A DNA stretch of 64,000 nucleotides from Chara braunii. Its lineage: Eukaryota; Plantae; Charophyceae. Position numbers and translations under genes: made by a program. This document shows, piece after piece, positions 12,329 through 56,190 of the stretch (position 1 is the first letter of the stretch; every line of letters begins with the position of its first letter). The notes beneath the pieces are model-generated. The model was given only the letters and a program-made list of their open reading frames with translations, made no database searches and was not told the origin of the DNA. The stretch lies in assembly GCA_003427395.1 (NCBI GenBank), contig BFEA01000014.1, forward strand, positions 3,107,552 through 3,171,551, read 5' to 3'.

Positions 12329-12373
<45 letters not shown>

Positions 12374-30487: not shown

Positions 30488-31232
30488 TGTTGGACCAAAT
30501 ACCCTTACCCTTACAAGGGTATTTGGCCATGTTTTACAATCGACACATCGATTGCACTGACCACCATGACGGGGCCGGTCTGAAAGGAAGAGGGTGTGAG
30601 CATTTAGCGTGATACTTGAAACGATTTTCCTAGCCGATGAGGCCGGGGCGAATCGCTGAGAGAAAATTTTCGAGAATATGTGTGCGCGTTGTCATGATGC
30701 GCACTGTGATGGTTAGAATCGGTAATGATACCCTCTGGACGAAAAGGTCGAGGGGTTGATTAGGTTAGTGATGTGTCAGGTAGAGATCTACGACACACAC
30801 TGAGACTTGGCCTGGTACCTGTCTACCTACTAGTACAGGGCGTCTGAAAATACCGACCTTTGTCTTCCTTTACTCGGCATCTCGAGTACCCAGCGCATCT
30901 ATCTCTACTTGGTGTGGTACCGGGCCACCTGTTACTTAAGTGTTTTCCACGACTCTTAAGTGTCGCGGACCTCTTTCCCCGCTACATGAGTGTTTTCCCC
31001 GCCGCGACCCTCAATATCGCGGCCACAACTAAGTACCGGCCTTTGGGCCTTCCGACCTACCAAGCACCCTCGCGGGTCACACCCACACTCAAACCGACAA
31101 GCGCTCAGACAGGCATGTAAGCCAGCGGGTGTGCATACGTGCAAACTTAGGAAACGGGCTCAGGCCACTAGGCGGACTAAGCCTCACTCCACTACTACAT
31201 ACATACTGACTTGCTTCCTTTCTACTCGAAGT

Positions 31233-31319
31233 GGGAGTTAGCTCAGTAGGTTTCGGTGATGCTTGACAAGCGGGGGATACGGGGATCGAGGCCTACCGCC
31301 CTCTGAGCTAATCTTTCTT
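31233..31319 (+). ncRNA. Putative Pol III (A/B-box) structured small RNA in LTR, copy 1
   Basis: A-box-like TTAGCTCAGTAGG and B-box-like GGATCGAGGCC. The 5' TTAGCTCAG pairs with the 3' CTGAGCTAA, followed by a T-rich end. Confidence 0.5.
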
Positions 31320-31821
31320 GGGAGCAGTTAGTGCCCGTTGTGACAGTTGGCACGACGGGGTGGCTAGTAGTTAGATTCTTTTGTTTTCCTTTTATTTTTA
31401 TTTTTTGTTTTGTTGGTTAGATTATTTTTTATTAAGATTATTTTATTTTATTTTATTTTATTTTATTCCTATTTTCTTTCGATTCCCGTGATTGCTTTTT
31501 ATTAATATGCCTTTATGAATCTGCCTCTGAACCCGGGCAGATTCGGTTCAGCCATGTGGCAGGGTTCTCAGACTGGCCGAAGTCACAAAAGACTGGCTGC
31601 CTGTCGTGAGAACTCGTTAAGCTGCAGGGTGTAGCAAGAAGCGGGAGAGTTGCGCAGATATGTAGGAGATTACCGCGCGGAGGATGGATAAAGCCATCGC
31701 GGAGGAAAAGGGAGTAGGACCGCGCAGAAGAAGGTGGCGCGGGCAAAGGGAGGTGAGATGAGTAGCGAGAGGGAGAAAGTATGATAAGTAGAAGAAGAGG
31801 AAGAAAAAGAAGAAAAAGAAG

Positions 31822-31886
<65 letters not shown>

Positions 31887-32160
31887 AAAAGAAGAAGAAG
31901 GAAGGAGAAGGAGAGGGAGAAGAAGGAGAAGGAGGGAGGAGGAGAGCACTTACCTGACCGTGCGGTCAGATGATTGCGGCGACGACGACGATAAAAACGA
32001 CGAGAGGAGAGCGAGAAAAAGGTTAGTCTTCAATATCGTGACTCACTTCATAGTACTCCTATCATTCAGATGAGCTAAATAAGAATGAATCTACCGCTAT
32101 AACAAGGAAATTTATACTTAGTCTATTACTACGTGTGTATGTGTGTGTGTCTGTGTATGT

Positions 32161-32303
<143 letters not shown>

Positions 32304-32477
32304 TAGGCGAAACACACACATGCGCAGAATGTAAGAGAGAGTTTTCCACTGAAGGGACGAGCAAATCGTATGGATATTCGGCAGCTACGACCTTGCGCAG
32401 CTTCCATCGAAGGATGAATGAAATCAATCGAATCTTTGGCTAGAACGTTGAAACGTTCTCTACCATGTGTGTGTGTT

Positions 32478-32508
<31 letters not shown>

Positions 32509-32642
32509 AGAAAAAGAAGTAAAGGAGAGAGACTTACCAGATTGACCGTTGATCGGCGCGGAATCGGACGACCAACCCCGAATATAACGTGCCCTCACTT
32601 TATATGCATTTGATGAAAACTATGATCTGCTGCATCTGCATA

Positions 32643-32722
<80 letters not shown>

Positions 32723-33525
32723 GTGTCATTATTATTATTATTAATTATTAATATTATTACTACTATTATTACTACTATTATTATTATATAGATTTTGCCT
32801 TAAATTACGAACATACGAACGAGAGGAGCACTGCGGGAAAAGAAGAAAGACATCGCGTGAAAGAAGAAGACCATGCTGAGGTGAAGAAAGCGTGAGGGAG
32901 ACGAGAATCATGGGATATAAAAAAAGGGTAATCCGATGGTCTTCAGGGAAGGAGAAGAGTGTGTGGGTTATCAAGGTCTGATGAGGGTGACGAGATACGT
33001 ACCTGGTGCATGAAGAGAGGTCGGCGATGGTTTTGGCAGTTATGTACGTTGGTCTTCGAGAGTCGAAACAAGACTGCTGTGTGAACACAGCTGTAGGTAG
33101 GATAGTCGGTTAGAGTAGGCTAGATGGACCGCATGCTAGTCCTTGGGGACACGTGGCATCTGTGAGTGGGGAACGAGGTAGTGAGTGATACGAGAGATAT
33201 ACCTGGTGCTTGAGGCGAACGACATGGGCTGAGATCTGCTCGTACTTCGGGGAGTTGTTGACATCATCAGTGGCATTGTAGTATAGGCTAGATAGGATCT
33301 GCCATACGTAGACTGGGCATCGAGCGCGCGATAGGATATCAACAATGGTTCTTCGTTGATGATAATGAGATTATTTCAACATTGTCAATTATGAGCTTTT
33401 GTTATGCTCTTATTTGGTGAAACTCGTGATGCAATCCTACTGTTGGTTCGAGATCACGACTATCTGGTCTTGTGTATATGATGTTGTTTGATTGCTGAAG
33501 TTCGCTATTTCTCATCTTTCTTGCA

Positions 33526-33572
<47 letters not shown>

Positions 33573-34015
33573 GGTGCAGGGTAATCTGGGTGCAAGTGAC
33601 ATCTGTGTGTTGGGGATCGTGGTTGTGAGTGATACGGGAGACATACCTGGTGATTGAGGCGTGCGGCATTGGCCGAGAAATCTGCTCGTACTTGGGAAGT
33701 TGTTGTCGTTAGCATTCGGCATTGTAGCATAGGCTATATAGGATCTGCCATTCGTAGACTGGGCATCAAGCGCCAGATAGGATATCAACAATGGTTCTTC
33801 ATGGATGATGATGAGACTGTTTCAGCATTGTCAATTATGAGTTTTTGCTGTGCTCTTATTTGGTGAAACTCGTGATGCAATCCTGCTGTTGATCCGAAGT
33901 CACGACTATCTGGTCTTGTGTATATGATGTTGTTTGGTTTCTGAAGTTCGTTATCGCTATTTTTCTTACTTGCAATTATCATTATTATTATTATTATTAT
34001 TAATATTATTATTAA

Positions 34016-34057
<42 letters not shown>

Positions 34058-34620
34058 AATTATTATTGCAATCAGACTCGCTTTCGATCACACTTCTCAT
34101 GCATGCAAACATGAGCACAGCGAACTGGCGAAAAGCGCCTACTCGAACTCGGAGATATGGTAGCCGAGAACACAGTTCAGGTACAAGTTTATTTCACTGG
34201 CTAGGGTGACGCGGCGCCCCCACAACTCTGTTCGAACACCGGATCACCCTGGGTACCTCACATACAACATTCTGCATACTTGGACAGACACATGCAACTG
34301 CACTACATCTACGAAGAGCCACGACTAACAGACAGACAAACAGACAGACAAACCGGACGGACCGACAGATTGGAGAGATAGACAGACAGACTGGGCGCCA
34401 GACAGAGAGGAGCGACTTGGATACTGTGTTGGTGTAACCTACGGGTTTGGGCATTGGCTCATTACTTCATTGTATTGCTCTAAATGGATGGGTTCTTGAT
34501 GCATTTGTACTCTCTGCTTGTACACGACTACTTTGACAAGTGTGTGATTTCGCAAACTTGGTTTTCTATATACTGTGCACACTCATATTTCTTGCAGTTA
34601 CTATTATTATTATATTTATA

Positions 34621-34674
<54 letters not shown>

Positions 34675-34859
34675 CTTCTTCAACATCCAACAGGCATACA
34701 AACAGATGATGATCACACTGGCACATGGCGCCCACATAAAGCTCAGAGATAAACGTAGCCGGGAACACAACTCAGATTCAAACTTGTCCCGAAATGGCTA
34801 TGGCGTTGGGCGTCAGACGACGACTCTTATCCGATCGAATGTACTCACCGGCAACTTGT

Positions 34860-36245
34860 TACATACACACACAGACAAAGTGACATACAGTGACATTGTG
34901 ACACACAATAAACACGAACAGGCTTACGCTGACACAGCGCCCTACACACTGTGATGCAGACACGGTGAAAAGGGCACACAGTGCACAGTCACATAGTCAC
35001 AATGACACACGCGTGCACAGACATGGTGATAGTCACACAATGACAGAAACACAGCGACACACAGGAATGGTATGACACACACACAGAATACCGTAGCAGG
35101 CACACAGTCACACACACAGTGCACATCGATGTGACAGTCACACTGTGACACATACACTGTGACAAACACATAGTCACGCAGTGACAGTCACACTGTCACA
35201 CGGTGACAATTATACAGCGAAACATACACTGTGGCACATACACAGTATCACATAACATAGACACAGTGTCACACTCACTATGATGCAGATACTGAGTCAC
35301 TTTGATGTATTGTGACACATACACACTGTCACATAACACAGACACAATGCCGTACACATTGTGACACAGATACAGAGTCACGCAGTGACGCGGGCACAAT
35401 CACACAATGACGCGGACACAGTCACACGGTCATATAGTGCACGGTGACACACGATGGACAAACATATACAGGGTGAAAACAGAGCAGCCACTGAGGCATA
35501 CATGGTAACACACAGACAAAGTCACGCTGTGACAAACATACATACACAGTGAAAACACTATGACACACAAATGAAAACACAGCCACACACGCAGTGAAGA
35601 CAAACACACAGACATGGTGAACTGTGACACACAGATACTGTGACAAACACACAGATATTGTGACAGTCACATAGATACTGAAAACACACATATAGGTACT
35701 GACATAGTGACGGCGACACTGTGATGCACGTAAACACAGTGGAGCAGACACATTGAAACACGGAGACACACACAACACTGTGACATATACAGTGACACAG
35801 ACTGTGACATACACAGTGACACAAACTATGACATACACAGTGACACAGACTCACTGTCACATACCTTATGACACATATGTACAGTCACACACACATAGAT
35901 TTAGTATCACGAACGCTGTAACACATACATAGGGTCACACACACAGACGTAGGATCACATACATTGTGACATAAATATACAGCCACACGCGTACACGGTG
36001 TCGCACGACACAGACACAGTGTCACGCACACAGTGATTCAGATACGCGGTCACACCGTGACGCACAGTCATACGGTGACACACAGTCACAATATGTCAAA
36101 CACGCACGAGGTCGCGCGGTGACACGTACGCAAGTGATACGGTCACTGTGATAGAAACAGTGTCACACATTGTGACACACGTACAAACACCATGATACAT
36201 ACACAAATATAGTGATACACAGTCACACAGTGACACTCAGACACA
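34860..36245. repeat. Degenerate CA-rich minisatellite (GTGACAC/AGTCAC motifs); counterparts at ~51770-52200 and ~52910-53180
   Basis: Directly visible. Confidence 0.85.
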
Positions 36246-36269
36246 GGGTTTCTTCTAAGGGAAATAAAC

Positions 36270-37135
36270 TATTAGTGTGGTAACAGGAGCGAGGCTCTTA
36301 GAAGCCTGCCTTACCACTATAGTAACTAAGATTAGTGTGGTAAGAGGCATGCCTTACCACTATAGTAACTAAGATTAGTGTGATAAGAGGAGTGGGACTC
36401 CGAGAAGCCTGCCTTACAATTATAGTAACTAAGATTAGTGTGGTNNNNNNNNNNNNNNNNNNNNNNNNNNNNNNNNNNNNNNNNNNNNNNNNNNNNNNNN
36501 NNNNNNNNNNNNNNNNNNNNNNNNNNNNNNNNNNNNNNNNNNNNNNNNNNNNNNNNNNNNNNNNNNNNNNNNNNNNNNNNNNNNNNNNNNNNNNNNNNNN
36601 NNNNNNNNNNNNNNNNNNNNNNNNNNNNNNNNNNNNNNNNNNNNNNNNNNNNNNNNNNNNNNNNNNNNNNNNNNNNNNNNNNNNNNNNNNNNNNNNNNNN
36701 NNNNNNNNNNNNNNNNNNNNNNNNNNNNNNNNNNNNNNNNNNNNNNNNNNNNNNNNNNNNNNNNNNNNNNNNNNNNNNNNNNNNNNNNNNNNNNNNNNNN
36801 NNNNNNNNNNNNNNNNNNNNNNNNNNNNNNNNNNNNNNNNNNNNNNNNNNNNNNNNNNNNNNNNNNNNNNNNNNNNNNNNNNNNNNNNNNNNNNNNNNNN
36901 NNNNNNNNNNNNNNNNNNNNNNNNNNNNNNNNNNNNNNNNNNNNNNNNNNNNNNNNNNNNNNNNNNNNNNNNNNNNNNNNNNNNNNNNNNNNNNNNNNNN
37001 NNNCTTACCACTATAGTAACTAAGATTACTGTGGTAAGAGGAGCAAGGCTCCGAGAAGCCTACCTTACCACTATAGTAACTACGATTAGTCTGGTAAGAG
37101 GAGCGAAGCTCCGAGAAGCCTGGCTTATCACTATC
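36270..37135. repeat. 60-bp tandem array (with gap) in 5' LTR
   Basis: Unit CTTACCACTATAGTAACTAAGATTAGTGTGGTAAGAGGAGCGAGGCTCCGAGAAGCCTGC. Confidence 0.9.
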
Positions 37136-38929
37136 TGACCTGATCTAATGCAAGACAGTAGATAGGAGGAGCAAGGTCTCGAGGTCTGCCCTATCACAAA
37201 CAGACGCCAATAAAAAGGGTGGGTAGATACCGAGTGGTCTATCATACTGTTACTAATCTTCTCGATAGACGGGGAACAGTAAAAGCCCTGAGAAGAGATT
37301 GATTCATTATTGACAGACCGCTTCCTGATTCTACTGAGGTGGGGGTAGAAGAAATGGGACCCTGTGTGACATGTCCTGCTACCTTAACCTATTGATTGAT
37401 GTCAATCTTATGATTCCGCTCCATATGAGATGGATAATATTTTGTGTATGTATGTCTGAAGGGGGAAGTTTTTGCGACGTTAGCTCTATACTTCTCTTCC
37501 TTCAGACGACTATCCCTAGAAGCCGATCTGATAAGAGATTAGACAGGGTATATAGAGAGAGTTATATCTACGTAGTATTATTCTCAACTATAATGAAGTT
37601 GGCTATATTGAACTTCATATGGGATCATATCGATGGTAGAGAGGTGTTGAGACCGTGTTGACCTGTATGTGATTGCGGGTCATCCTGATGAAGAAGACTC
37701 ATTATGAGTCTATACAAGACTATATGATGTAACAGTTGCCTTATGATAACAAGTCGGTTATCCAACTCAACCCTCGCTCACCCTCGACACCCACACTTTG
37801 CATCGACCTTTGCACTAAACGGCATTTCCGTTTCAGGTCATTTGTCTAAAGGGTCTGTGTTTGGTCAAAAGAGGTCTTTGAATGACTAAGTCGAAAGGGG
37901 AATGTTTGTTAAAAGGTTTGGAAGCGTAAGTGTGATGTGTGTGAAAGTGAATGAATGGTTGACTCTGCTAGGATTGTGTAATGTGATTGACTTTGTCTGC
38001 AGGTCAGTAAAACGACCAGCCACATGCTATTCACGGCAACCCATTGAGAAACTTATGTTGTCCTGGGCCTTGATCCAGATGTTCCATCAGTGCGCGATTG
38101 GTTTGAGTATCCAGCCTTGCGCCCTTTTACCCTGATTGTTAAACAGATTATGATTATTGCTAAGGCTACGAGCCTTATTCATTTTATGTTCATTTCATCT
38201 ACACATGTTTGAAAGGTCAATGACCTATGTTTTCCCTGATGAATTCAGACTGTTTATGTGAATGTGTTACGTGTATATAACATATCCTCGCCTAATTACT
38301 CAGCCTTACCTCACTTCACATGTATGTATGCTATGGTTAAAGGGTTCTCATAGAGAGATATGTTGAATGGACTTAATCACTAGGTAGGATGGGAATATGT
38401 CTTATACGCAACCCTTGATAATTTGAGTATTGAGAAGGATCATGCTTTGAAAATGGGATAGGTTATAAGTCATACCTATAGAAACTATTTATAAGCAAAG
38501 CGTAGTATGCGCGAACGTTCGTCAGTCGAGTCGACCTGATTTGTAAGTCGGTCCGGGAGATCAGCGCCCCGATGCCTGACGTGTATACGAGTCAGTCTTA
38601 GGCGTTCAACCGCACGTATGCCTATGCTACGGCGATCGAGCAAACACCCTCGGTTCGCTTACCTCTGCGATTGCAAGTAAAAACATTCGCACGTGAGTCA
38701 ATAGCTCAGCAGGGATACGCCCACCTAAGGGATGGTGACAGCTTCCGCAGGTGGAGGTGAGTTGTACCTCACAGGATCTCTGTCCTGTCGCAGGGAGCTG
38801 CAGGAGGTATAGTTGGCGCGCACGGTCGAGTTGGCTGAAACACTTTTAAAACTCCTGCCTGATGCGACGGTGAGGTCCGACACCAAAAATTATTTTACGT
38901 CTGGGTGTGGGACCGCCACGCCCGACAGG

Positions 38930-38947
38930 TGGCGCCCTTGCCGGGGA
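38930..38947 (+). promoter_or_regulatory. Primer binding site, tRNA-Asp (Athila-like) type
   Basis: TGGCGCCCTTGCCGGGGA lies 2 nt after the LTR-terminal CA and is one mismatch from TGGCGCCGTTGCCGGGGA. Confidence 0.8.
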
Positions 38948-41515
38948 TCTCGCTTTCCAGCCAAGGTCCTCAGTGAACGAACTCGGGTATCCTAAGACGA
39001 TGATCGCGACAAAACGACAATCTTTAATCAAACTAATATAGTTTGTGATATGTGGGTAGAAATTGTGTCGAATAGATGATGTGATGCGTCTGAAAAGGGG
39101 TGCAATTATATCGATAGTACCTAGAAGAGTCATGTTGTTAGGGATTTCGACTACCTACCAATATCCTTAGAAGAACGAACTAAGGTATAAGGTAGTTAGA
39201 AATCTCTGTCAACTAATAAAGGTGATACTTTTATATAGTAGTTAGAAGTTAGGTTAATGAACGACTTCAGGGAAGTATCTGTGTATGTTGGATCCTTCCT
39301 TCAGTTTACATACTCGAGGCATTCGTCCGTATAACCGCTTGTGTTGACTTGAGTAGTTAAGAAATTAACGACTGCATTGATACTCTTAAAAATTATCAAG
39401 GGTCAAGGAAAGGTAGGCGCGTGACTATCTATTCTATTTATCTTTAGGTTAGTGTAGACTGATTTAGTCAGCCTTACTTTTCACGACTTTCTTTTCTGTA
39501 TAGCTTTAGTCATATCTAAGTTGAAAGAGTTATGACGGAATTTTGTTCCTTGTCTAATTGAACTATCTATTCAGTGCATTGCTTACCACCTTACAGGGAA
39601 GAGAACCCTCTACATCCTTGGTTTGTACCGATACTAGGGTCAACGAGATAACGTGTATACTGTAAGGCTCATGGGCCCCCGTGCATGATTCTTTTCACGC
39701 TTAACTATTTAGAAGGGATCGCTACGAGTAGCCTAATTGTCTTCTCCTTGAGTTTATGTACGAAATAAGGAGCACTCGGTCATATGATTATTTTACGCTC
39801 TTATGCCTTATGACCCATTGTGATCTGTTGGTGTCAAGCGAGTCAGTAGCAAAGAGTGAGATTGAGGATGCAAGGATGAAAGGAGGGAACCTTTAAAAGA
39901 GGGTGGCATGGTGGTCATCAAAACATGATATGAGAGATGTCGCAACTATGAGATGACGCATAATTCTTTATATTATTAAGTCATGTTGTTCAACACATCG
40001 TGTGATTTCTACGTCTTTATCCACCTCTGTTTAAATCATCAGTTGAACGTCCATGTTAGCAGTAAGCTGTTATACTATATTCCTATTAGACTATATGCAG
40101 CATTGTCAGTTCCGACGGAGGATGATCTTTGTAATATTACGTTTATATGTTTTCAAACCACCCATATGCAAGTTTACTTATCATCTTTGAGGTTATCTCT
40201 TGCCTTGATCTGAGTCTTGTTACCTGTTTGAATTATTATCTTGATAGGTATTTTATCAATTGCTTAATCTAGAATGTCATTGACGGATCTCCAAGTAGGA
40301 TGACACTATATCTCCTGCTCACTATCCTAGGTATATCCTCAATGCGCTTTAAATCTATTTTGATAATTGCAGCATCGTGATTGTTCCTAATAAGTCGAGA
40401 CTATTAGAGTAAATTGGAGTACTATATCGTAACGTCTACCTCTCGTGAGCACGTCCTATCTCCTCGAACTTTGGTTATGAGCGACCCGATGACTAACCAC
40501 AATGCCTCAACTTCGAACATAGTAAGTTCAGATGTTGCTTGCCCTCAGCTAGTCTCACTGAAGCGCTTGTTCTAATAAGACTAGAACCCGTGATCTGGGT
40601 CGCTGTCAGAAGTATAAGAGGGACTGAATCTCCTCAATGTCTCGTCATTATAGTACCTCTTTCTGAGCGACGATAAGGGAACCTGCTAAGGTAGGGGAAA
40701 GAAGATGATGTGTACTGTTAAAATTCCTTCTTAGACTTTGATGATAGACCTCTTGAACCCTGGACAAAATATAGTTGTTAGGCTACCTACTTGAAGACTA
40801 TGTGCGTTGGCGAGGTCATTGGTCATATAGATTGTGTATAAGGTTATAGATTAAACTAACCTTATTAGCCATTGCCTACATAGTCTAACTAGATTGTCAG
40901 AATTCTTGAAGTTATATGATATACGTCTTAATGGTAGCCTAAAAGGTTAGCTGATTCGTGAAGTTCTAATGATAAAAAGAGGTCATGCGCTTCTGTATGA
41001 TAGGTGCATTTTGGGGTAGTAAACGACGGTATACTAGGGTCTATCAAAATACGAAGGAGTCTTGAAGTTCAACGTCCATTTTCGAAAGTCGAGCTTGAGA
41101 TATAAGACATTGTAGTCTTAGAAACCTGATTACATTCATATTATTGGTAGGTAAATAGAATAAGGTGGGTCATATTATGCTTAGTTGTCATGACAGTTAG
41201 GAACCAACTATTTACTAAAGATCTGATTATAATATTATGCTAGTATGACACAAATTCTGATTTGATTATTGAAAATAGATTTCAACCCTTGGAAGATCAT
41301 GAGATATGAGTTAATTATCTGCTTAGGGACTCGCTAATCATGAGGGGCAAATAGTATAGTAAACGTAATATTAGGTCATTTACTTGAAGAATAAGCTACG
41401 TGAGTAGACTAGGATTATTACCGATTGGTTACTCAATATAATTAGAGTATGAGAGGGTCCACTTGAGGGTTACCCGACTCCTTAAATTATAGTGTTATAT
41501 AAGGAGTGATAAAAC

Positions 41516-41999
41516 CATGGTTACGTTCCGGACGTCCGGACCGACTTCCAGATAGTCCGGAGTACAATGTCCGTGCAGACGTACGGTCCGCAGGGTTCGG
41601 AAGGTGCCAAATCCAGACAATTTTTTTTTCAAAAACGGGTCGGCCTGGACCCTTGGTTGGGTCGAGGCCGACCCCAAAAAATTGACCCTGGTATTTTTTC
41701 GACCCGTTGGGCCTCTGCAGACATGGCCGAACGCGCGCTTCTTAGGTTTTAGATTTTTTTTTTTTTCGTTCACTGCAGTCTTGGTGTGGCCTCGATTTCG
41801 GAGGGAAACGAGGGTCTGTTCGAATCGAAAACCCTCTCGCCCGCCATTCAGCCGCTGGTACGTTGTCGAGACTCTCATCGCCCTCCACTCGCCCCGCTGG
41901 ATGTTGACGTCATCGTTGCAGCGCTTCCCCCATCGCCGTCGCCGTGGCTGCTCTGCACGTGGTCGCCGTCATCGAGCCAACGTTGCCATCAAACACACA

Positions 42000-42083
<84 letters not shown>

Positions 42084-42425
42084 AGTCGTGGAGGAGAGAG
42101 GAGTTGTGGATGACGCAGGAGACGCAGAGGAGGGACGACGATGGCGGCTTAGAGGAGGGAGGATCTTGAAGACAAAGTAACGTTAAAAAGTGTTCTGTTT
42201 TTGTTTGTTGAGCTGAGTTTGGATCGGTGAAATCACTAAAAAGTTGGATACATTTACGGAAGAATGTCACCCCCCCTGGCAGTTTTTTTTTTTTTTTTTC
42301 GGACCGTTTTTTTTTCCGGACCGTCCGCGTCCGCTATGTCCGGAATTCCAGACGTCCGGACCGGTCCGGACGTGCGTCCAGTTTCGGGTACGGTCCGGTC
42401 CGGGTCCGGGTCTGGCGTAACCATG
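41516..42425. mobile_element. Non-autonomous hAT MITE (910 bp)
   Basis: Perfect TIR CATGGTTACG / CGTAACCATG. Perfect 8-bp TSD GATAAAAC (41508-41515 and 42426-42433). TCCGGA/GGTCCG subterminal repeats and an internal (CA)n. Confidence 0.93.
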
Positions 42426-45400
42426 GATAAAACTACTTATTCCCACAATGATAAATGTATATGACTTGGTATGAATGAATGTGTGTGGGAATGAATGATA
42501 TGTGTTTCAAGTGACATATCATTGTATGTTTTGTTCTTGGTTGAGAGAAGTTTGAACTTGTTATGTATATAGTTATTGATTGCTTGACGAATGTTTGTGT
42601 CTGCCAGTATATGTTGATGAATTGCTTTCTTCAATAAGGATAGACAAACTTTGTGAAATCCACGTTCGGCATGGGACCGAAGGTGAATGGAGTGACTAAC
42701 CTTTGAAGAGAAGAAATTCTCTCAAGGAAGGTCAGCATGCAGAACCTGTCCTTTTGGGCGATTGCAGCATTGATTGATACCTTTGTATGAGAGGTTTGAA
42801 GAGTGTATAGTTAAGTCATGTAAACGGTAAAGAAACTCACACCGGAACAATGTTCCTGGTCCATAGTGGGGTGTTGTCATTTTTCCTTGTACAGGAGAGA
42901 TGACTACATTACCGTTGAAAGGGAGGAAGGTGTTGTGATCATATCAAGACGCTGCTTATAGAAAAGGTGACTGTTGTTCGCCACAAGGGAAGGAGTAGTG
43001 ACCTAACCGCGTGTCGAGCAGAGTCATCTCACGTTCTTAGTCGATGTTTCACTAACCTCGGTTATGGGAGGTGAGGTTGTCCTACTCTATTAAGTAGCCG
43101 ATTGATGGGGTCGCAACATCAGAATCGGAGCGAGATGTGGTGAGGCTAAGTCCTAGAAGCGGGACTCGGGATCTGGGATGTTATACTTTGATCGGATTAC
43201 ACCACCCCTCGGCACGATATACCCCTATTAAGCCTAAATGAGTAGTATATTTTATGTCATCGCAGTGATTTTTTTTCTCGTGCAGTCTCAATTGTAACGG
43301 TTGTTTTCATTGTTAATGAAGTTATCAGTTGCTGTTTTGTTTAAATTAGTACGGTTGATTGTATTGGAATTCTATGAATAATGATTTATTTTCCTTACAG
43401 TCTCAAACATTTCTTCTACTATGATAAGTTTATATTCTTTTTTTACGGCAGGAGAATGTCATTTACACTTGGTTCGTGAGAACAGGGGTAAAACCCTGCG
43501 TACAGTAACGAGTTATTTTGACATGTTTCTTCATTGATGATATCGATCTGAGTGAATGAATGTGGTTGAGTTTTGATAAGTGTCGTCGAAAAGGTTTAAT
43601 CATTTTTGGGGCAGCTTAGCTTAATACTCAGATCTGAGTATTATGCGAACCTTCATGCAATGCATTATTGAAGGCGAAGCCTCAGGAGTCAGTATGACGG
43701 CGACTTAAACTAAGTTTTTGAATCTTGAAATTATTTTTAGGCAGCCGCGATATGTGTCCTGCTTGCGAAGACATCAAAGGTATGTCTTGAAAAGTCGCCG
43801 CTCATTACTCTATAGGGTTAGTCTGAGATAAGTTTGTGAGATCCAAACGAGGTACTCGTTCGAATATGTCGACGCTTTGAGAGATATCTTTGCATCAATG
43901 ATAACGTGAAAACCAACATTTTCATGAAACAATTTTTTGTATATTTTGAAAGATCCCCGAGACGCGTGTCTGACCGAGCTGTGATCGAGACTTGGAGGAC
44001 ACGACCCCTGAGTGACAACCTGACAATGATCCTTGTTCATCCACAGAGTGGCAACCTGACAAGGATTAAAATATTTTTTATGATGATTTTTTGATATATA
44101 TTGAATTGAACATCGTTCATCCACTTCAGGAGGTCAGCCTGAGGGACTGAATTACCAAGCCTATGGTGAAAAATTGGCATCGTTGGGACGTAACTCCCAG
44201 CCTGGGCTACTGACCAAGTATAACCAGGTAGCGGACCTTCTAATTTTGGCCTTGAGTTGAGACCTGAGGGGTGACCACATGATGAAGGAATTAACTCAGG
44301 TAGTTATCAAAGGGGTCGAATATATTCTTTGAACTATATGTGAAAATTTTGATGATAGGACTTACCCGTCATTGCGCAACCAATACGGGAACTACCGTTA
44401 ATATAACAAACACGGTAGGCCGCAGCTCCGACCTGATCAACAGGACTGTGGTGGGTCAAGATGTAGACTGTTTGTCCTCCTATATTACGCTTCGGGCAGG
44501 ACAGCTGGCAACTTTGGATATTAATATCGAAAGTTGGACATCCAAGGTCTCGGTTAGGACCCGCGTTTGAGGGGTTGAGTTCGCATGCGGACGAAAGACC
44601 CTGAAGACAACCAACGATGACCTGGCCAAAAGTCTAAGGGTGAGGGGAAGAAGGAAACATTGTCATACTTGACTATTTCATGTACTTTAGTACGGATAAA
44701 GTATCCCCACTTCATGTCATTGGATTTATTTTGCAATGTGGGAGATCCGGGTTAAAGTCCCGACAGTTATAATGAAAAATGAGGTGACGATGTCAATCTT
44801 GAACCACACTTCCAGGGAATCGGAAAGGAACTTACGTTCTCTTCCAAGCAGAAAGAGAGGTACATGTTTTGTTTTGTATTGTATCATCTGTGTGGTGATG
44901 TTATCAATCATGTCATATTTTATCAGTTGATTTGATTTTGGGGAACGATCAAAAGGGGAATTGTATGAACGATCGTCATCAACGTCCCTAGCGACGGGGA
45001 CGTCGCTTAATAGGGTCTGGGATACTATCGGACCAAATACCCTTACAAGGGTATTTTAAAATACCCTTACAAGGGTATTTGACCATGTTTTTACAATCGA
45101 CACACTGATCGCACCGACCACCATGACGGAGTCGGTTTGAACTTAAAAGTGTACGCGTTTTTTGCGGGACACTTTGAAACAATTTCCTCGACCACTGAGG
45201 TCGAGGCAAATGGGGGTAAAAATTTTGTTAAGTATGCGCGCGCATCATGATGACGCGCGTTCTGATGGTTAGAATCAGTGGTAATACCCCTCGACAGAAG
45301 AGGTCGAGGGGTCAGTTGGGTTAATATTGTGTCAGTAAGATCTATGACACCCATTGAGACTTAATTGTCGGTACGTCAGTCTTGATAAATTATTATACGG

Positions 45401-46101
45401 CCCGACCATACGGTCGCAGCAATTATTAGTGTGTGATCATCAGACTTGCAATAACGCCCGGATTACTAACGATTGCTCGAGCGGCACCTCTGTCCTTACT
45501 CATATACCGCGGTGAGGTTGAGGCTCTCGCTCGGCCGTCCGTATGAAGAGAAGCACTTGCCTTTCGGACGGTGACTTCCTGACCTATTGGCCATTCAAGC
45601 AAAACTGGTGTCGTCGTCCCTTTGCCGAGGGAGACACCGTTGCAAACTCTGATATTGTCTGCACAAGGTCTAGACTCAGGCTACTTGAACTGGTACCCAC
45701 CCACCTACCGGTACTGGGCCTCTAAAAATGCCAACTTCTGTCTTCTTCTACTCGGCCTCGAGTACGCGGCACGTCTGCCTTTACTAGGTTTGAAACCAGC
45801 CTACCTGCTACTTGAGTGTTTTCCCCGTTGTTCTAAGTGTGCAGGTTTACCCCGCTACCTTATAACTTTTCCGCCACGTCCTTCAAAGCCACGACTACAG
45901 GTAAGTACCGGGCCTTCGGGCCTTCTAGCGACCAAGTGCCCTTGAGGGTCACGCACACACTCAAGCCGACAAGCACTCAGACACGCACGCAGACCAGCAC
46001 GCGTGCACACACGCGCAGACTTAGAATTGGGCTCGGACTATTAGGCGGACCGAACCTCATTCTTGTACTTATACCGGGACTACTCCTATCTTACTCGAAG
46101 T

Positions 46102-46188
46102 AGGAGCTAGCCCGGTAGGTTTCAGGGTGGAGTGACAAGTAACAGACTCGAGGATCGAGTCCACTTGCCGGCGGGTTAGCTCTTTTTT
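46102..46188 (+). ncRNA. Putative Pol III structured small RNA in LTR, copy 2
   Basis: CTAGCCCGGTAGG and GGATCGAGTCC boxes. GAGCTAGCCCG pairs with CGGGTTAGCTC, followed by TTTTTT. Confidence 0.5.
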
Positions 46189-46217
46189 AACAAGGAGCCC
46201 CGTATCATTTCGCCCTT

Positions 46218-46272
46218 GTTCCCGGTAGGCGGGGCTTGAACCCACGACCTCACTATTACAGTTAGTTGTCGT
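46218..46272 (-). pseudogene. tRNA 3'-half-like sequence (anticodon arm, variable loop, T-arm)
   Basis: Revcomp reads ACTAACTGTAATAGTG-AGGTC-GTGGG-TTCAAGC-CCCGC. No D-arm or 5' acceptor strand was found. Confidence 0.55.
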
Positions 46273-47665
46273 TGCCCCGTTGAAACGGGGTCCGACACTT
46301 GGCAAGCTGGGGTGGTAAGACGTTAGATTCTTTTATTTCTTTCGTTGTTTTCTTTTATTTATTTCTAACAATTAGATTTCCCTTTTCTATTTTATTATCG
46401 TTTTTTTCCTTTTCACACGTAGTTTTCAGATAGTTTGTTCTTATGAATATGTCGCGGGATCCACGACAGATTCGTTGACGAAATACCTCGGCACTACACG
46501 GATCTCGACTTCGGAGTCAAGAAGGTGGCGTGACGGAGTCGCGACCGACCACTACGGGAATAGGCTGTGGGAAAGGCTATCGACAGAACTAATGCGGTAG
46601 TAGCAGGAGGAGAACTGCGCAGAGGTAGGAGGACACGAGGAGGTAGGAGAAGACCGCGCAAAGGAAGAAGAAAGCGCAAAGAAGAAGAAGAAGAAGAAGA
46701 AGAAGAAGAAGAAGAAGAAGAAGAAGAAGAAGAAGAGCGAGACGAGAGAAGGAAGTCCGCGCAAAGGAGGAAGAAAGCGCGACGACGAAGAAGTAAGAGC
46801 GGAGAAGTAGTGATAGAAGAAAAAGAAGAAGAAGAAGAAGAAGAAGAAGAAGAAGAAGAAAACGAAAAAGAAGAAAAAGAAGGGAAGAAGAAGAAGAAGA
46901 AGAAGAAGAAGATGAGGGAGAGGAGAGGGGAGATGGGCGGTCAGCAGGTAGAGTCGCGCAGGCAGTAGCGGAGATGGCCGCGCAGGAGGAGGAGGTGCGC
47001 GGGGAGGGAAGAAGTGAAGGAGGAAGACAATCACGCGGGGAGTAAAGGGAGATGGTTGCACAGAGAGGGAGAGATCGCCGCACGGGAAAGGAGATGGTCG
47101 CACGGTGCAAACAGCAGGATGAAGTGCGCGGAGGAAGAAGAGAATCGCAGGAAATCGCGCGAAGGTAGCGCAACTCGGGGGAGAAATGTGCGCACACAGA
47201 AAAGCGAGAAGGGGGCGGAAGTGGCCGCGCGCAACAGTGAATAGAAAGAGGTAGCAAGAGGAATAGCAGTAGTTGGAGAAGAAGAAGAAGGAGGAGGAGG
47301 AGAAGAAGAAGAAGAAGAAAGAGAAAAAGAAGGAGGAGAGAGACGAAGGAAAAGGGGGTGGCTTACCTGTTGTCCGCCAAGAGCTTGGAAGGCTCACGTG
47401 TGCCGATCAAGCTCCCCGTGTGATGGTCACGGTATGTTGCACATCGTTTAGGATCGGGGAGTGTCGAGCCGACGACAACGACGACGATGGCAACGGCGAG
47501 GGAGCGAGAGAGAGAAAACGGGTAAGTCTCCTACCCCACGACTAGCCTAACGCTACTCCCATCGATAGCATGATTAAATAAATAAATAAATAAAGCAAAT
47601 GAATCTAACGCTACAACGTGGGAATATACATCACATGTGTGTGTGTGTATGTGTGCGTGTGTGTG

Positions 47666-47717
<52 letters not shown>

Positions 47718-48540
47718 TGTGTGTGTGTGTGTGTAGAATGCATATTGCAACCATAGCAACCCATTATAGGAACCTCCTCGTACCTTGTAATTGACAGTCC
47801 ATTCGTAGCACTTGGTTAGGAGAGCTCACCTTGCTGCCATTATGTTGTGTCCTTTGGTCCCTGCATTCACCGACGGTATGAAACAATGGCAAGGGGAGAG
47901 AGAAGAAGAGAGAGAGATATGGAAGGAGAAGGAGAGGGTAGCGACAAGAGGGGAGCATGATGGACAATGCCATCAGACACTAGCTGTATTTGCTAGCGGA
48001 GGAGGGGGGGCGCATCCCCTAAAGCGCTTTTCGCCGCTTGCGCTTATCACGGCTCATCAGAGGGTGAGGATCCTCTGGCTCCCAGTGGTAGTGAGAGGGC
48101 AAGTGGTAGGGATTGGAGCAGTCGGAGTTCTGTAACGAACTTACCACATGCTCGTTGGCTTCAGCTTCAGCAAGGTACTCGTCCATAGCTGCCATTCCAC
48201 ACCACGTACTCTATCAGAGATGGCCCAATGTGACCGCAGTATGAGGCTTCACCGCCTGTGTCCTGCCGATCAGATCTCACCGCAGTTGCGTTTGTCCACG
48301 TACGTGGAGTATTAGCAACTGCTCAGGATATAGGAGAGTGGAAGGTAGAGAACCTCCTTTCTCAGTTAGCTATGGAGGGTATTGTCGTTCCACCCGTAGT
48401 ACCGAGTCTGAGGTAGAAGAGGAGAGAGGAGGGAGAGGAGATGGTGAAGCAGGAAGAAGGCAGTGCATCCAACAGTGGGTAGCCCCCGCTGTAGCTACAA
48501 GGGAACCCATTGGTTGCTTTTATGTAGGCGTAGCAAGGTA

Positions 48541-48900
48541 ATTGTGCAACTTGGGATAGTGTGAATGGTGTGTGCGGGCGTATGAGTATGCTGGGTGCGA
48601 TAGTATGCGCTTGCTCGCAGGGTTAGTGGGGTTGAATGACGTGTGGTAGGGGTAGCAGGGCGATTGTGCGACTGAGAAAACGTGAATGGCGTGTGTGGGC
48701 GTATGAGTATGCCGGGTGCGATAGTATGCTTTTGCTCGCAGGGTCAGTGGGGTTGAAAGGAGTGTGGTAGGGGTAGCATGGTGATTGTGCCACTAAGCTA
48801 GTGTGAATGGCGTGTTTGGGGGTATGGGTATGTTGGGTGCGATAGTGTGCACTTGCTCGCAAGATCAGTGAGGTTGAATGGAATGTGGTAGGGGTAGCAG
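48541..48900. repeat. ~121-bp tandem repeat x3
   Basis: ATTGTGC starts at 48541, 48663 and 48784. Confidence 0.85.
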
Positions 48901-49721
48901 GTTTTGGGCATGGTGGCGGTGAATAGCAGTTTCTTTTGGATTCATATTGTCGTGGGTGTTGGCTATGGGGTTCTGTGGGTTCTGTCTTTTGTGATATGAG
49001 TGATGGATGTGCAGCTCTCGCTGGAACGTGCATGCATTTTTTCGTGAGTTGTATTTTGGGTAAGTCTACAGATGTTAATTGTTTGTTTGTGTAATGCTGG
49101 TTGAGTTGGCTCCTGTAGTGACCGTTCGAGCTTGCAGGTTTTTGTTCTTAGTGGTGTCTGCGTTGAGATGAGTCGTCATGTTTTTGTTTGTTTTTGCTAT
49201 GTCAGTAGCAGGAGGAAAGGTGCCTTTTTTTTAGGGAGGTGAGTCTGTAGGACATATGTGGGTGGGTTTCTAGTATCTTTGTCCTGAAGTCAGTCATACG
49301 TTGTTTATCTGTATGTATACATTGTTGTTTCTGTTCTTGTTTTTGTTCTCCGTTCGTTCGGCATATTTTTTGTTTTTTCTGTTGTTGTTTTATATGCGTA
49401 AGTCGTCCGGGAAGTGTGTGGGTGTGTTCATATTTGCTGGGGGTGAGAGTTTGGGGAAGGTGGGTCGGCAGGTGATCTAGGCTTAATTTGGTGTTGTCCT
49501 CTGTATGTGTGGGATTTTTTCGTCCTATGTTCTTAGTTCTTCTTTGCATACGATAAGCAGGTAGTGTGTGCGTGTGATTATGTTTTATTGGGGGTGTGAA
49601 ATTGGGGATGGTGGGCGGGCAAGTGGTCTTGTTTTTATTTTTATTATTATTTTATTATTATTTTTTATTTTTTATCGTTTATTTGTATATATATCTCTCT
49701 GGGCCAGTGTATGGGTCTCTT

Positions 49722-49770
<49 letters not shown>

Positions 49771-49904
49771 AAGAGTTACCATTGTTTTGTCGGTGAGAGG
49801 TGTGTGTCTGTAGTGCTGTGCAACGGGGTTCTTTTGTTTTTGGTTTCTTGTGGCTATAGAGGTGTGTAGTAGGTACTGATATTGGTTAGGCCTGTTGGTG
49901 GTGA

Positions 49905-49945
<41 letters not shown>

Positions 49946-50119
49946 TACGCGTGTGTGTGTATGTGTGGGTGAGAGAGAGAGAGAGGGAGAGAGTTGCTGC
50001 CTCCGCATCTCCTTTACACTCTGGTGGGCTGCCACCCGCTGTCATCGATCCACCGCTCCCCTTTGCCTGCCACTATCTGCTATGCGCCCATGCGCCTGCC
50101 CCGCATCCCCTGCTCGCTC

Positions 50120-50211
<92 letters not shown>

Positions 50212-50352
50212 NNNNNNNNNNNNNNNNNNNNNNNNNNNNNNNNNNNNNNNNNNNNNNNNNNNNNNNNNNNNNNNNNNNNNNNNNNNNNNNNNNNNNNNNN
50301 NNNNNNNNNNNNNNNNNNNNNNNNNNNNNNNNNNNNNNNNNNNNNNNNNNNN

Positions 50353-50386
<34 letters not shown>

Positions 50387-50952
50387 TCTTCTTCTTCCTC
50401 CTCTAAGTCCGCCATCTCTCCCTCACCCTCTCGCTACCTGACCTCTCGGGATCTACAGACTATGAGAGAGAGAGTGAGAAAGAGAGAGAGAGAGAGAGAG
50501 AAGGAGATCGTGTGTGAAAGTGAGGAAGACTGAGAGAGAGGGAAGGAGAGGAGGCGTGATGGTCCTTGGGTGCATGTGGCATCTGTGAGTTGGGGATCGG
50601 GTTGTGAGTGATACGGGAGACATACCTGGTGCTTGAGGCGAACGACACCATGATGGGCTGAGATCTGCTCGTACTTCGGGGAGCTGTTGACGTCATCAGT
50701 GACATCGTAGTCTAGGCTAGGTAGGATTTGTCGTCTGTAGTCTGGGCGCCGAGCGCCAAATAGGACATCAACATTGGTTCTTCGTCGATAATGATGATGA
50801 GACTTTACCATCATCGTCAAGTTTGAGCTCTTGGTGTCTTCTTATTTGGTGAAACTCGTGATGCAATTTTGTTGTTGGTTCAAGGTCACGACTATCTGGT
50901 CTTGTGTATATGATGTTGTTTGATTACTGAAGTTCGCTATTGCGCATCTTTC

Positions 50953-51014
<62 letters not shown>

Positions 51015-51429
51015 GTTATTTCCGATTGATAATCAGACCGCTCTATTTCTTACTTACACGTGCAATCCGTCTTGGGGAACGAGGTTATGAGTGATGAGAG
51101 AGACATACCTGGTGCTGGACGCGTGCGGCATTGACCGAAATCTACTCATACTTGGGAAGTTGTTGTCCTCATCTTCACCATTGTAGTCTAGTCTAGGTAG
51201 GATCTGCCATATGTAGTCTGGGTGTCGGGCGCCAGATAGGATATCAACATTAGTTCTTCGTTGATGATGATGAGACTATGCCGACATTGGCAATTATGAG
51301 TTTTTGTTGTACTCTTATTTGGTGAAACTCGTGATGCAATTCTGCTGTTGGTTCGAGATCACGACTATCTAGTCTGTGTATGTGATGTTGTTTGATTGCT
51401 GAAGTTTGCTATTACTCCTCTTCCTTGCA

Positions 51430-51472
<43 letters not shown>

Positions 51473-51483
51473 TTTTATTTTTA

Positions 51484-51550
<67 letters not shown>

Positions 51551-52600
51551 GAAATTAGAATTGCTATCTTTCACACTTCACATGTATGGAAACATGTGCG
51601 CAGCAAACCAGCGACAATCGCCCACATAAACTTAGAGATATGGTAGTTGAGAACACAGTTCAAGAACAAGTTCACTTTAGATGGCTATGGCGCAACAGCG
51701 CCCACACAACTCTATGTTCACACGCGTGCCACTCTGGATCCCGCCGGATGTCCCATACTCACACATAGACAGTTGCGTGTACACAGACAGACACACACGC
51801 AGTGACACAGACACAGAGACACACACACTGAGAAACACTCGGGGACACAGTGACAAGTACACAGTGAACCACACAGTACACAGTAAACCACACATACACA
51901 GCTACACAGCGATACTTACATGCGGAAACACAAAAACACAGTCACATAGTGACACGTACACCAGTGACAAAGTGACACACACAGATACACACACACACAG
52001 AAAACAGTGACATACATACACATACACGGTGAATACACAGATACACGATGGTACACAGCAACCCACTGTGGAACAGACATAGACACTGTGACACACACAG
52101 TCACAGTGGAACAGACAGTGACACGCACACACAGACGAACAGACAAAGGCAGATGGACAAACATATGAACAGACAGACAAACAAACATACATATACAGTG
52201 AGAGAGAGGAAGAGGGAAAGGAGAGAAAGAAAGATGATGATGTTGTGAGGGCACGTACCTGGTGTTGGCGAAGGTCTGCGTGGGTCGACGTTGTCCATTA
52301 CTTCAGTTTTGCTGCTAATGCCAGCAATTGCATTGACAATTCGTAGACTGGTAGTAGCTGCGTGATCGAAGGATGGGCGCCGAGCGCCAAGTTGGGAGAT
52401 AGGGCCTAGACACTCATGATGGTGGTGGCAAGGATAAGCTCTCATTGACATTGGTCTTCAGTGCTACGACTCTTCATTGGTGTTATATTGGTGCATTTCT
52501 GTTTTCTGGACACTATGATACTATCTGGCCTTCAATGTGATTGTGCATTTTTGGACATTGACATCTCGCTATTTGTTCATTTCCCTTGCACTATTGCAAC

Positions 52601-52640
<40 letters not shown>

Positions 52641-53654
52641 GTTGTTGTTGTTGTTGTTGTTGTTCTTGCCGTTGTTGTTGTTGTTCAATTATTGTTTACT
52701 AGTTGATTTAATCCTACCTGCATCCGCTAATTACCGTATGCAAGGGTGGGGACTTGTCGAATGCTTGAGGCATCCGCCGACGGCGTCGTGGGGATGGTCC
52801 GTCATCAACCGACTGTTGGAATGCGAGTTTGTGCCTGTCGAGCCCCTTTGTTGTGGTCTCAGTATGCTATGCATACTGCTTCGCTGCGTTTCCATAAAGA
52901 GACTGGCAGACAGACAGACAGTGAAACGGACACACAAATATTGTGACAGTCACACACACAAATACTTTGACATTGACACACACACATAGACTAGGTGTCA
53001 CATACACTGTGACACAGATACATAGGGTCACACACACAGACTAAGTGTCACATACACTGTGACGCAGATGTGCAGTCACACAGTCTCATACACACAATTA
53101 CACGTTGACACACAAGTGCACAGTGACACACACAGACACTGTGACAATCACACAAACGCAATAAACACAGTGACACTGAGAGTCAGGGGTTCTTCATAGC
53201 TAAACCTAAGAAAGAAAGGCAGACAATAATGCTTGAGTAAAAGTAGAAAAGCATGATCTTACGGGGTGTATCTAACTGTTGTTGGAAAACGTAGCGAGAA
53301 CGAGAAGTGTTGAGTCACTGTCTCGCTACGTGAATGTTTCTTTTGGGATATGATGGCCTAGGGGATGGACTTCTGGCAGTCTTCCCTCGCTTATAAGTCA
53401 CCTGACCGTAAGATATAAGAGGGGGATCATAAGTGTATTGCCGAACTTATGAATGATATGATCAGATATTGAGACGTTGGATTGCTTCAACAAACCCTTA
53501 CCGTATGACTGACTTATGCCTACGTAACCTCAAAAGTCCAAACTAACCCAGTCGGGGATCAGGCGGATGATTTTAAGACATAAGGTACAAGTCTAGTATA
53601 ACATACCCGCATGATCTTAAAGGCTTCCGGACGGTCCAAGACTTAAAGGGGCGT

Positions 53655-54410
53655 CAAGCATAATAATAATAACTAGGTGGTAAGAGTGAGTGAGGCTCCG
53701 AGAAGTCTGCCTTATCACCACAATAATAATAACTAGGTGATAAGAGTGAGCGAGACTCCGAGAAGCTTGCCTTATCACCACAATAATAATAACTATGTGA
53801 TNNNNNNNNNNNNNNNNNNNNNNNNNNNNNNNNNNNNNNNNNNNNNNNNNNNNNNNNNNNNNNNNNNNNNNNNNNNNNNNNNNNNNNNNNNNNNNNNNNN
53901 NNNNNNNNNNNNNNNNNNNNNNNNNNNNNNNNNNNNNNNNNNNNNNNNNNNNNNNNNNNNNNNNNNNNNNNNNNNNNNNNNNNNNNNNNNNNNNNNNNNN
54001 NNNNNNNNNNNNNNNNNNNNNNNNNNNNNNNNNNNNNNNNNNNNNNNNNNNNNNNNNNNNNNNNNNNNNNNNNNNNNNNNNNNNNNNNNNNNNNNNNNNN
54101 NNNNNNNNNNNNNNNNNNNNNNNNNNNNNNNNNNNNNNNNNNNNNNNNNNNNNNNNNNNNCTGCCTTACCACTATATAGTAACTAAGATTAGTGCAGTAA
54201 GAGGAGCGAGGCTCCGAGAAGCTTGCCTTACCACTATAGTAACTAAGATTAGTGTGGTAAGAGGAGCGAGGCTCCGNTGCCTTACCACTATAGTAACTAA
54301 GATTAGTGTGGTAAGAGGAGCGAGGCTCCGAGAAGCCTGCCTTACCACTATAGTAACTAAGATAAGTGTAGTAAGAGGAGCGAGGCTCCAAGAAGCCTGC
54401 CTTATTACCT
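53655..54410. repeat. 60-bp tandem array (two variants, with gap) in 3' LTR
   Basis: Period is 60 bp (54281 to 54341; 53711 to 53771). Confidence 0.9.
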
Positions 54411-55516: not shown

Positions 55517-56190
55517 ATGTGCTATGTGTATGTGACATCTCCTTGCCTAATTACCCAGCCTTTTGTCTCACCTCACATGTATGTATGCTATGGTTAAAGG
55601 GTTTTCACAGAGAGAGATGTCGATTGGACTTAATCACTAGGTAGATAGGTATGTGTCTTATGCGCAACCCCTGATGATTCAAGTATTGAGGGGATCCTGC
55701 TTTAGAAAAAGGAGCTAGGTTATGAGTCATACCTAAAAAGACTATTTATAGGCAAAGCGTAGTATGCGTGGATGTTCGTCAATCGAGTCGACCTGATTTG
55801 TAAGTCGGTCCGGGAGATCAGTGTCCCAATCCGACGCGTATACGAGTCAGTCTTAGGCGTTCAACTGCGCGTATGCCTATGCTACGACGATCGAGCAAAC
55901 GCCCTCGGCTGACTTACCTTTGCGACTGCAAGTAAAAGTCTTCGCATGTGAGTCAGTAGCTCAGCAAGGATACGCCCACCTAAGGGATGGTGACAGCTCC
56001 CGCAGGTGGAGGTGAGTTGTACCTCGCGGGGTCTCTGTCCTGTCGCAGGGAGTCGCGAGAGGTATAGCTGGCGCGCACGGTCGGAGTTGGTCTTTCGTTG
56101 AAACTCTTATAAAACTCCTGCGTGATACGACCGTGAGGTTCAACACTTAAATTTACTTTACGTCTGGGTGTGGGACCACCTTGCGCGACA

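Follow-up and report, generated by a model that had tools for sequence, protein, structure and literature searches.

What purpose does a tRNA-sized unit with Pol III-type promoter boxes serve inside the long terminal repeats of a retrotransposon? We addressed this question in a 64,000-nt stretch of the Chara braunii genome (GenBank assembly GCA_003427395.1, contig BFEA01000014.1, positions 3,107,552 to 3,171,551), hereafter the window. The initial annotation of this DNA had proposed two 87-nt units at 31233..31319 and 46102-46188, borne by LTRs, with A-box-like and B-box-like motifs and with 5' and 3' ends that pair in both copies. All of this was borne out: the two units lie in giant LTR-like repeats, carry type-2 boxes at tRNA spacing, and pair end to end over 9 bp in copy 1 and 8 bp in copy 2 with the arms originally quoted. 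Only these two units matched a combined A and B box pattern when both strands of the window were searched. The coordinates of the units and of their host element are given in Table 1.

Table 1. Features of the tRNA-derived units and of the element that carries them (window coordinates)
Feature	Position	Strand	Remarks
tRNA-derived unit, copy 1	31232..31319	+	tRNA position 1 = 31232; boxes near the commonest family form; 3' end decayed
A box, copy 1	31239..31250	+	shared with the 5' arm of the terminal stem; free of variant rows at ≥8%
B box, copy 1	31283..31293	+	no variant row, no indel
3' tail (panhandle 3' arm), copy 1	31300..31316	+	complementary to tRNA positions ~2-19
Site of TATA-like run (-35 to -28), copy 1	31197..31204	+	run present in family members; decayed in copy 1
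Site of TATA-like run, copy 2	46066..46073	+	decayed
tRNA-derived unit, copy 2	46101..46188	+	A box 46108-46119; B box 46152-46162; 3' arm 46168-46184; T6 46183-46188
tRNA 3'-half-like piece, opposite-facing	46218..46262	-	B box 46242-46232; absent in copy 1; in other family copies
Giant LTR-like repeat 1	30494..38927	+	~8.4 kb; 5' end uncertain; 3' end ACA
PBS-like sequence	38930..38949	+	starts 2 nt past repeat 1
Internal region	38950..44950	+	~6 kb; MITE-like insert ~41500-42440
Polypurine tract (PPT)	44951..44960	+	10 purines; directly before repeat 2
Giant LTR-like repeat 2	44962..56190	+	~11.2 kb; TG...ACA; 3' end homologous to repeat 1 end

Comparison of the window with itself showed that both units are held by one long direct repeat, the main blocks of which are 71-86% identical between its two copies. 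Repeat 1, the PBS-like sequence (which we take to be of the tRNA-Asp/Athila type), the internal region, the PPT and repeat 2 are arranged as expected of a single LTR element whose LTRs are giant. This host element is most likely a decayed member of the Ty3/gypsy type, a label that derives from the PBS type and from a neighbouring element rather than from a coding match. Three forward frames of two stretches of the internal region yielded no significant Pfam match, only a sub-threshold one to CRM1_C. An apparent likeness to decayed pol, noticed by eye, found no confirmation and carries no weight here. An integrase ORF at 20269-21045 had 11 homologues at E ≤ 0.001, and 10 of these 11 were named Chara braunii proteins. 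The K2P distance between the repeats falls from 0.24-0.30 in their 5' part to 0.145 at the 3' end, which indicates that the repeats are mosaic and not a clean LTR pair. Their first ~60 nt do not align; the 5' end of repeat 1 has no homology to repeat 2, and no TSD was found beside it. A TATAAAA motif lies 82 nt before the 3' end of repeat 2, and a smaller LTR may end at 46298.

The giant repeats and the surrounding DNA contain several further features. Tandem subrepeats of ~450 bp and 60 bp and many microsatellites occupy 33131-34229 and 36271-37134, with counterparts at 50554-51713 and 53677-54404, and their copy numbers differ between repeat 1 and repeat 2. A palindrome lies at 30494-30532, in the 5'-terminal part of the giant repeat, and recurs, partly duplicated, at 45030-45084 in copy 2. 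The MITE-like insert in the internal region is bounded by terminal inverted repeats and encloses a CA microsatellite. A short LTR motif at 45960-46012 reached a summed contig depth of up to ~149,000, and oligo-dT reads of diverged copies matched it in the hundreds, on both strands; it is common to a far larger, transcribed repeat family. A weaker A-box/B-box-like unit is found on the minus strand in the LTRs of a neighbouring Ty3/gypsy element (15105-15200 and 26108-26203), with a third, degenerate copy at ~59270-59360. Its A box lacks GG, its box spacing is 41, it has no T-run, and its tail pairs with its 5' end (z-scores of -3.81 and -1.77); it is possibly a second independent case, or chance. 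The motif ACA-NN-TGGCA.. occurs at 46293-46316, 31341-31362 and ~15592-15615, the last just after the iMet-type PBS of an unrelated element, element A, and may be the remnant of a PBS or an RNA signal common to both. An 81-bp satellite containing inverted blocks (26400-29460), inserted in the 3' LTR of element A, forms long hairpins that gave rise to sub-threshold miRNA matches. Elsewhere, the window holds a hAT-type ORF with DUF659 and a dimerisation domain (911-4438, minus strand) and a LINE with endonuclease and RT (6792-9170, plus strand).

To classify the unit, we compared it with known Pol III genes. Numbered from 31232 and 46101, copy 1 matched 17 and copy 2 matched 16 of 19 invariant tRNA positions at standard spacing, and T8 is followed by G53 at 45 nt, as in a standard tRNA. 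A collinearity score of 16 was reached by only one other of ~128,000 scored windows; a minus-strand match of 16/19 at 40100 was set aside as chance, with no stem or T-run seen by eye. The T loop is of the A54 type and presumably resembles those of eukaryotic Ala or initiator Met tRNAs. We rejected the unit as a tRNA gene, since the acceptor and D stems are lost (3/7 and 1/7 acceptor pairs, 1/4 and 0/4 D-arm pairs in copies 1 and 2), ARAGORN predicted 0 tRNA genes, RF00005 gave no match at E ≤ 10 on the short stretches around the units, and the anticodon letters vary across family contigs. The absence of a cloverleaf had also been noted initially. Judged from its sequence, the unit is a tRNA gene refolded into a panhandle. 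Self-priming of the element was likewise rejected, the unit being complementary to the PBS over 4-5 nt at most.

Other classes were considered in turn. The initial annotation had likened the unit to vault, VA and Y RNAs, had pointed to Cassandra elements, and had proposed an Rfam search; at E ≤ 5 over the window this search returned 23 matches, none of them on either unit, and the short stretches returned one irrelevant match and none. Conserved pairing between box A and box B is a feature of vault RNA; in the Chara unit 7/12 of these pairs are kept in copy 2, and we rejected this class on both grounds. A Cassandra-type unit was rejected on the lack of a 5S match in Rfam. The inner architecture once suggested found no support either, as the A-box/B-box stem is kept neither in copy 2 nor in the family, where the partner letters vary on one side only. 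An ordinary tRNA-SINE head with its own TSD, which the annotation had named as the case that would overturn its reading, was also examined. The loose ends of family contigs agree on both sides of the unit (0.63-0.73), and joints connect the A box to the upstream LTR motif; because of these shared flanks and joints we rejected an independent tRNA-derived SINE, although a SINE may be the ancestral origin of the unit. At the level of the family, the features of a type-2 Pol III gene are all present (A box, B box, T4 or longer, and a plant-type TATA near -30), whereas the individual copies are less complete. Copy 1 ends in TTTCTT (31314-31319) without a T4 run, so that the T-run reported earlier holds for copy 2 only; the TATA is decayed in both window copies, and no CAA motif was found upstream of the unit. 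The opposite-facing tRNA 3'-half-like piece behind copy 2 showed a depth bump over its flanks and joints at 46230 in family contigs; it could be captured primer read-through or a second TFIIIC site.

Next, we assessed the terminal stem. Downstream of the T arm, the unit matches tRNA positions ~2-19 in inverted orientation, which pairs the A box over its full length with the tail, at pair probabilities of 0.83-1.0 in copy 1; copy 2 reaches 13 consecutive pairs including G-U. The fold z-scores were -2.43 for copy 1 (3 of 200 shuffles were as good) and -3.97 for copy 2 (0 of 200), and end-to-end stems of at least 10 pairs were found in 7 of 713 tiled 87-nt windows. Three pairs differ between the copies by double changes: 31238/31311 is T-A where 46107/46179 is C-G, 31243/31306 is T-A where 46112/46174 is C-G, and 31245/31304 is A-T where 46114/46172 is G-C. 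All three are transitions; one further pair changes on a single side (G-C to G-U), and none of the 8 pairs is broken. In a neutral two-lineage simulation at K = 0.3 (200,000 runs), which leaves out template switching and was applied to a stem picked post hoc, 8/8 pairs were kept together with at least three double changes at a frequency of ~2 × 10−5, and with at least two at ~6 × 10−4.

The three covarying pairs that had been claimed are thus all real, but they do not carry equal weight. T31238 is a minority letter, with C in 92-93% of the depth there in family contigs, and the copy 1 tail is eroded; we therefore discounted the pair 31238/31311 as a rare variant in a decayed copy. In mapping to copy 2, C46112 was kept in 38% and 46% of the depth and G46114 in 29% and 33% (two runs), and no variant at their partners 46174 and 46172 was present among the 40 listed of 147 variant rows. 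Double changes 2 and 3 therefore look like differences between subfamilies, with copy 2 apparently representing the second subfamily; the linkage of 5' and 3' changes inside single copies comes from the two window copies only and amounts to one subfamily split. Common variants in copy-2-like contigs improve pairing, namely T46183>C (81% and 52% of depth) and G46170>T (92% and 96%). The inner stems mentioned by the initial annotation do exist, each in one copy, and are not conserved: 7/12 pairs of the copy 1 inner stem are kept in copy 2, at 3.4 kcal/mol above the best fold, and 6/7 pairs of the copy 2 inner stem are kept in copy 1, three only as G-U and outside the best fold of that copy.

To determine which parts of the unit are constant across its family, we aligned public contigs from two DNA runs of one study, possibly the one that the window itself comes from, at ≥80% identity and recorded variants at 8% or more of the depth; such contigs show other genomic copies, not other populations. 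This yielded 289 and 321 contigs on copy 1, and 840 and 879 on copy 2, the latter mostly at the upstream high-copy motif. On copy 1, variants were found at 22 of 29 positions in the middle, 1 of 33 in the A-box block (31221-31253) and 0 of 28 in the B box and tail (31283-31310), without indels. Fisher tests of the middle against the A-box block (p ~6 × 10−10) and against the B box and tail (p ~9 × 10−10) give values that are too small, since sites on a tree are not independent. The pattern was the same at G/C sites only (16/18 in the middle, 0/15 in the A-box block, 0/18 in the B box and tail). Constancy of the B box and tail is overstated because local alignment favours matching ends; depth drops from ~925 to 470 along the tail in one run, where clipping affects roughly half of the contigs. 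Where a contig is clipped in the middle, the B-box word nonetheless stays in register, and past 31310 the sequence of 18 and 20 contigs goes on to form a perfect 14-bp stem with the 5' arm, followed by T4. Loose ends before 31212 and 31220 contain the TATA-like run with an agreement of 0.63-0.70, and this position fits the TATA at -34 to -29 of plant tRNA genes, as far as the accessible text of PMC3082873 describes them. Summed depth over the A-box block was 10,000-14,000, against 6-17 in the private flank, and is not a copy number. With constant boxes and tail around a drifting middle, the unit is a real feature and probably selected across the family, as the initial annotation had supposed.

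We also searched for transcripts and relatives. Oligo-dT reads of 101 nt gave no depth on the unit in 6% of one run and, in 12% of the other, 3-5 reads over the A box only and 0 on the B box and tail; this library type is blind to an 85-nt non-polyadenylated RNA, and the reads were given no weight in either direction. Among possible RNA contigs, which were likewise given no weight, one covered 31207-31252 in one set and none did so in another. Box-pattern scans gave 0 matches in metagenome contigs (two scans) and 0 in viral contigs. No description of such a unit was found in the open-access literature searched.

The explanation that we favour, at roughly even confidence, is that the LTR-borne tRNA-derived cassette is a self-contained Pol III mini-gene giving a predicted ~85-nt panhandle RNA, with a benefit that would likely be local, in cis. 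Its starting point is the tRNA-type boxes at fixed spacing, to which family members add an upstream TATA-like run and a downstream T4; boxes and tail hold constant against a drifting middle, and paired changes between what appear to be two subfamilies preserve the stem. It is this combination of boxes, spacing, TATA, T4, a drifting middle and a stem beside a short T-run that favours a self-terminating unit acting in cis. TFIIIC and TFIIIB would load onto it and Pol III would produce the short RNA; transcription of the whole element by Pol III is implausible because the element spans >25 kb. The tail might then stand in for the lost acceptor stem, as a hairpin that lets a weak T4 release Pol III, and also keep the RNA from tRNA-like folding or processing. 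In yeast assays, as given in the accessible part of the report, a hairpin directly before T4 makes a working terminator (PMC9278858). The same assays found that T6, as in copy 2, needed no hairpin, which counts against stem-aided termination (PMC9278858). In the weakest step of the proposal, the bound machinery might shield the 5' part of the LTR from silencing, by keeping it open or by bounding it; this step leans on general insulator literature, none of it on Chara (available text of PMC11346459). The decayed TATA in both window copies and the lack of an upstream CAA motif count against the mini-gene.

Alternatively, the RNA may act in trans, in the style of VA RNA or of foamy-virus cassettes, as a stable and abundant panhandle that is exported and that occupies Dicer-like or defence proteins or is cut into small RNAs. 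We consider this unlikely. The terminal stem of 14 bp plus three further pairs exceeds what termination needs, yet it is kept, and its paired 5' end with an oligo-U overhang fits what we take to be the VA-type export motif. A typical plant Dicer-like substrate, however, is longer than the stem of the unit. Moreover, the middle 29 nt drift with no inner structure conserved, unlike in VA RNA, and this drift makes it less likely that the RNA body has a sequence-specific role. Precedents for action in trans are described in the accessible portions of PMC4378190 and PMC3993851, and the great abundance of the A-box block, while Chara braunii has 373 tRNA genes (PMC13578239), is also in its favour. 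A broader proposal, which we regard as similarly improbable, is that a streptophyte alga hosts a Ty3/gypsy-type family of full-size elements which encodes its own VA-like Pol III RNA, made from a captured tRNA gene refolded into a panhandle and present in hundreds of copies, with anti-silencing in trans or competition with tRNA genes for TFIIIC as its effect.

It is distinctly unlikely that the cassette is a relic of the Helenus type, selected as a promoter in a smaller ancestor (an LTR of ~1.3 kb, or a TRIM) and now a passenger in a giant LTR. The ACA followed by the TGGCA.. motif lies ~27 nt past the unit in copy 1 and 110 nt past it in copy 2, and with such an end the unit would sit close to the terminus of a small LTR, the arrangement seen in Helenus; T-runs follow the tRNA-like unit in Helenus LTRs too, and the mosaic divergence of the repeats agrees with such a history. 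Nevertheless, homology continues for 7.6-10 kb beyond this motif and stops exactly at the ACA before the PBS-like site, there is no depth step at 46298 (near the edge of the mapped stretch), and the subfamilies with paired changes share LTR flanks. The TGGCA.. motif is not necessarily a PBS, since it also occurs behind the iMet-type PBS of the unrelated element A.

We see a slim chance that the hairpin serves the element through its Pol II transcript, either as a TAR-like leader located 30 nt past the TATA run or in packaging or strand transfer, and that the boxes are kept only as stem parts or flanks. The TATA run at -35 would fit Pol II equally well, and pairing alone could conserve the A box, which is the 5' arm. 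The B box, on the other hand, lies outside the conserved stem and is still invariant at fixed tRNA spacing, T4 follows directly after the stem, and the TATAAAA near the end of repeat 2 would be a better-placed candidate for a Pol II promoter. Finally, we give very little credence to a dead fragment of a tRNA or SINE in which template switching, during replication or reverse transcription, maintains the palindrome without selection: the double changes are all transitions and the copy 1 pair is C>T/G>A in an otherwise eroded tail, but this mechanism fails to account for the constant boxes, the fixed spacing, the TATA and the T4, all of them around a middle that drifts, and copy 2 keeps G-U pairs and shows changes towards G-C, against methyl-C decay.

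Returning to the cis-acting mini-gene, we compared the unit with systems already described. Since the unit is collinear with a tRNA gene, its nearest known counterpart is Helenus and not Cassandra or vault RNA, to which the initial annotation had looked. As set out in the accessible text of Kojima 2024 (PMC10886601), Helenus/TRIMp3 elements share with it a tRNA-derived LTR sequence that is conserved around boxes A and B and contains no functional tRNA, the lack of PBS complementarity, and, by eye, a T-run behind the unit; the terminator as such is therefore not new. Like Helenus, the Chara element has a PBS-like site behind its 5' LTR and a PPT in front of its 3' LTR; TSDs of 4-5 bp are also described for Helenus. 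However, Helenus elements measure 311-1263 bp with LTRs of up to 323 bp, a size linked to Pol III transcription of the element (PMC10886601). By eye, the Helenus LTRs inspected mostly appear to keep the acceptor and D stems, whereas the Chara unit has lost both and instead pairs its 5' and 3' ends in a panhandle that shows paired changes. Among plants, Selaginella is the sole host listed, and "Chara" was absent from its supplement by term search (PMC10886601). The unit appears to work like a Helenus cassette without being a member of Helenus.

Other systems resemble the unit in part. Paired ends, as in the Chara unit, are found in VA RNA and vault RNA. Adenovirus VA RNA and vault RNA (excerpts of PMC4378190 and PMC7904556) also share a type-2 promoter and a short structured RNA ending in U, which is predicted here, but the Chara unit has no sequence or Rfam match to them, lacks a conserved central or apical domain, and is retrotransposon-borne. 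Cassandra TRIMs are green-lineage elements with a Pol III internal promoter in their LTRs; in the available description they are short and use 5S-derived boxes A and C, in contrast to the tRNA-type A and B boxes found here (PMC7215508). The Pol III miRNA cassettes of foamy-virus LTRs combine a short A/B-box unit, a terminator and a stem-loop in a long LTR; unlike the algal unit, which is known from sequence alone, they have been shown to be transcribed and cut into miRNAs, and in the accessible text they are apparently not tRNA-collinear (PMC3993851). In rodents, the RNA of BC1 and ID SINEs is a tRNA-derived Pol III RNA that, like the one predicted for the Chara unit, is refolded away from the cloverleaf; its own fold is rod-like. 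BC1 belongs to the host genes and carries an A-rich tail, while the Chara unit has no tail and moves with the LTR. BC1 is described as the ID master gene (excerpt of PMC8143547).

In the accessible text of PMC10886601, tRNA cassettes in LTRs are read as Pol III promoters for short elements. The Chara cassette is apparently selected in an element far too long for this role, and it ends in what is predicted to be a stem-assisted terminator. The many natural variants of the family and the published Chara assembly make the proposal testable. If it is confirmed, such cassettes would serve a job other than producing the RNA of the element, be it a chromatin boundary or a small RNA, and the function of the Helenus units, many of which have T-runs, would be reopened.
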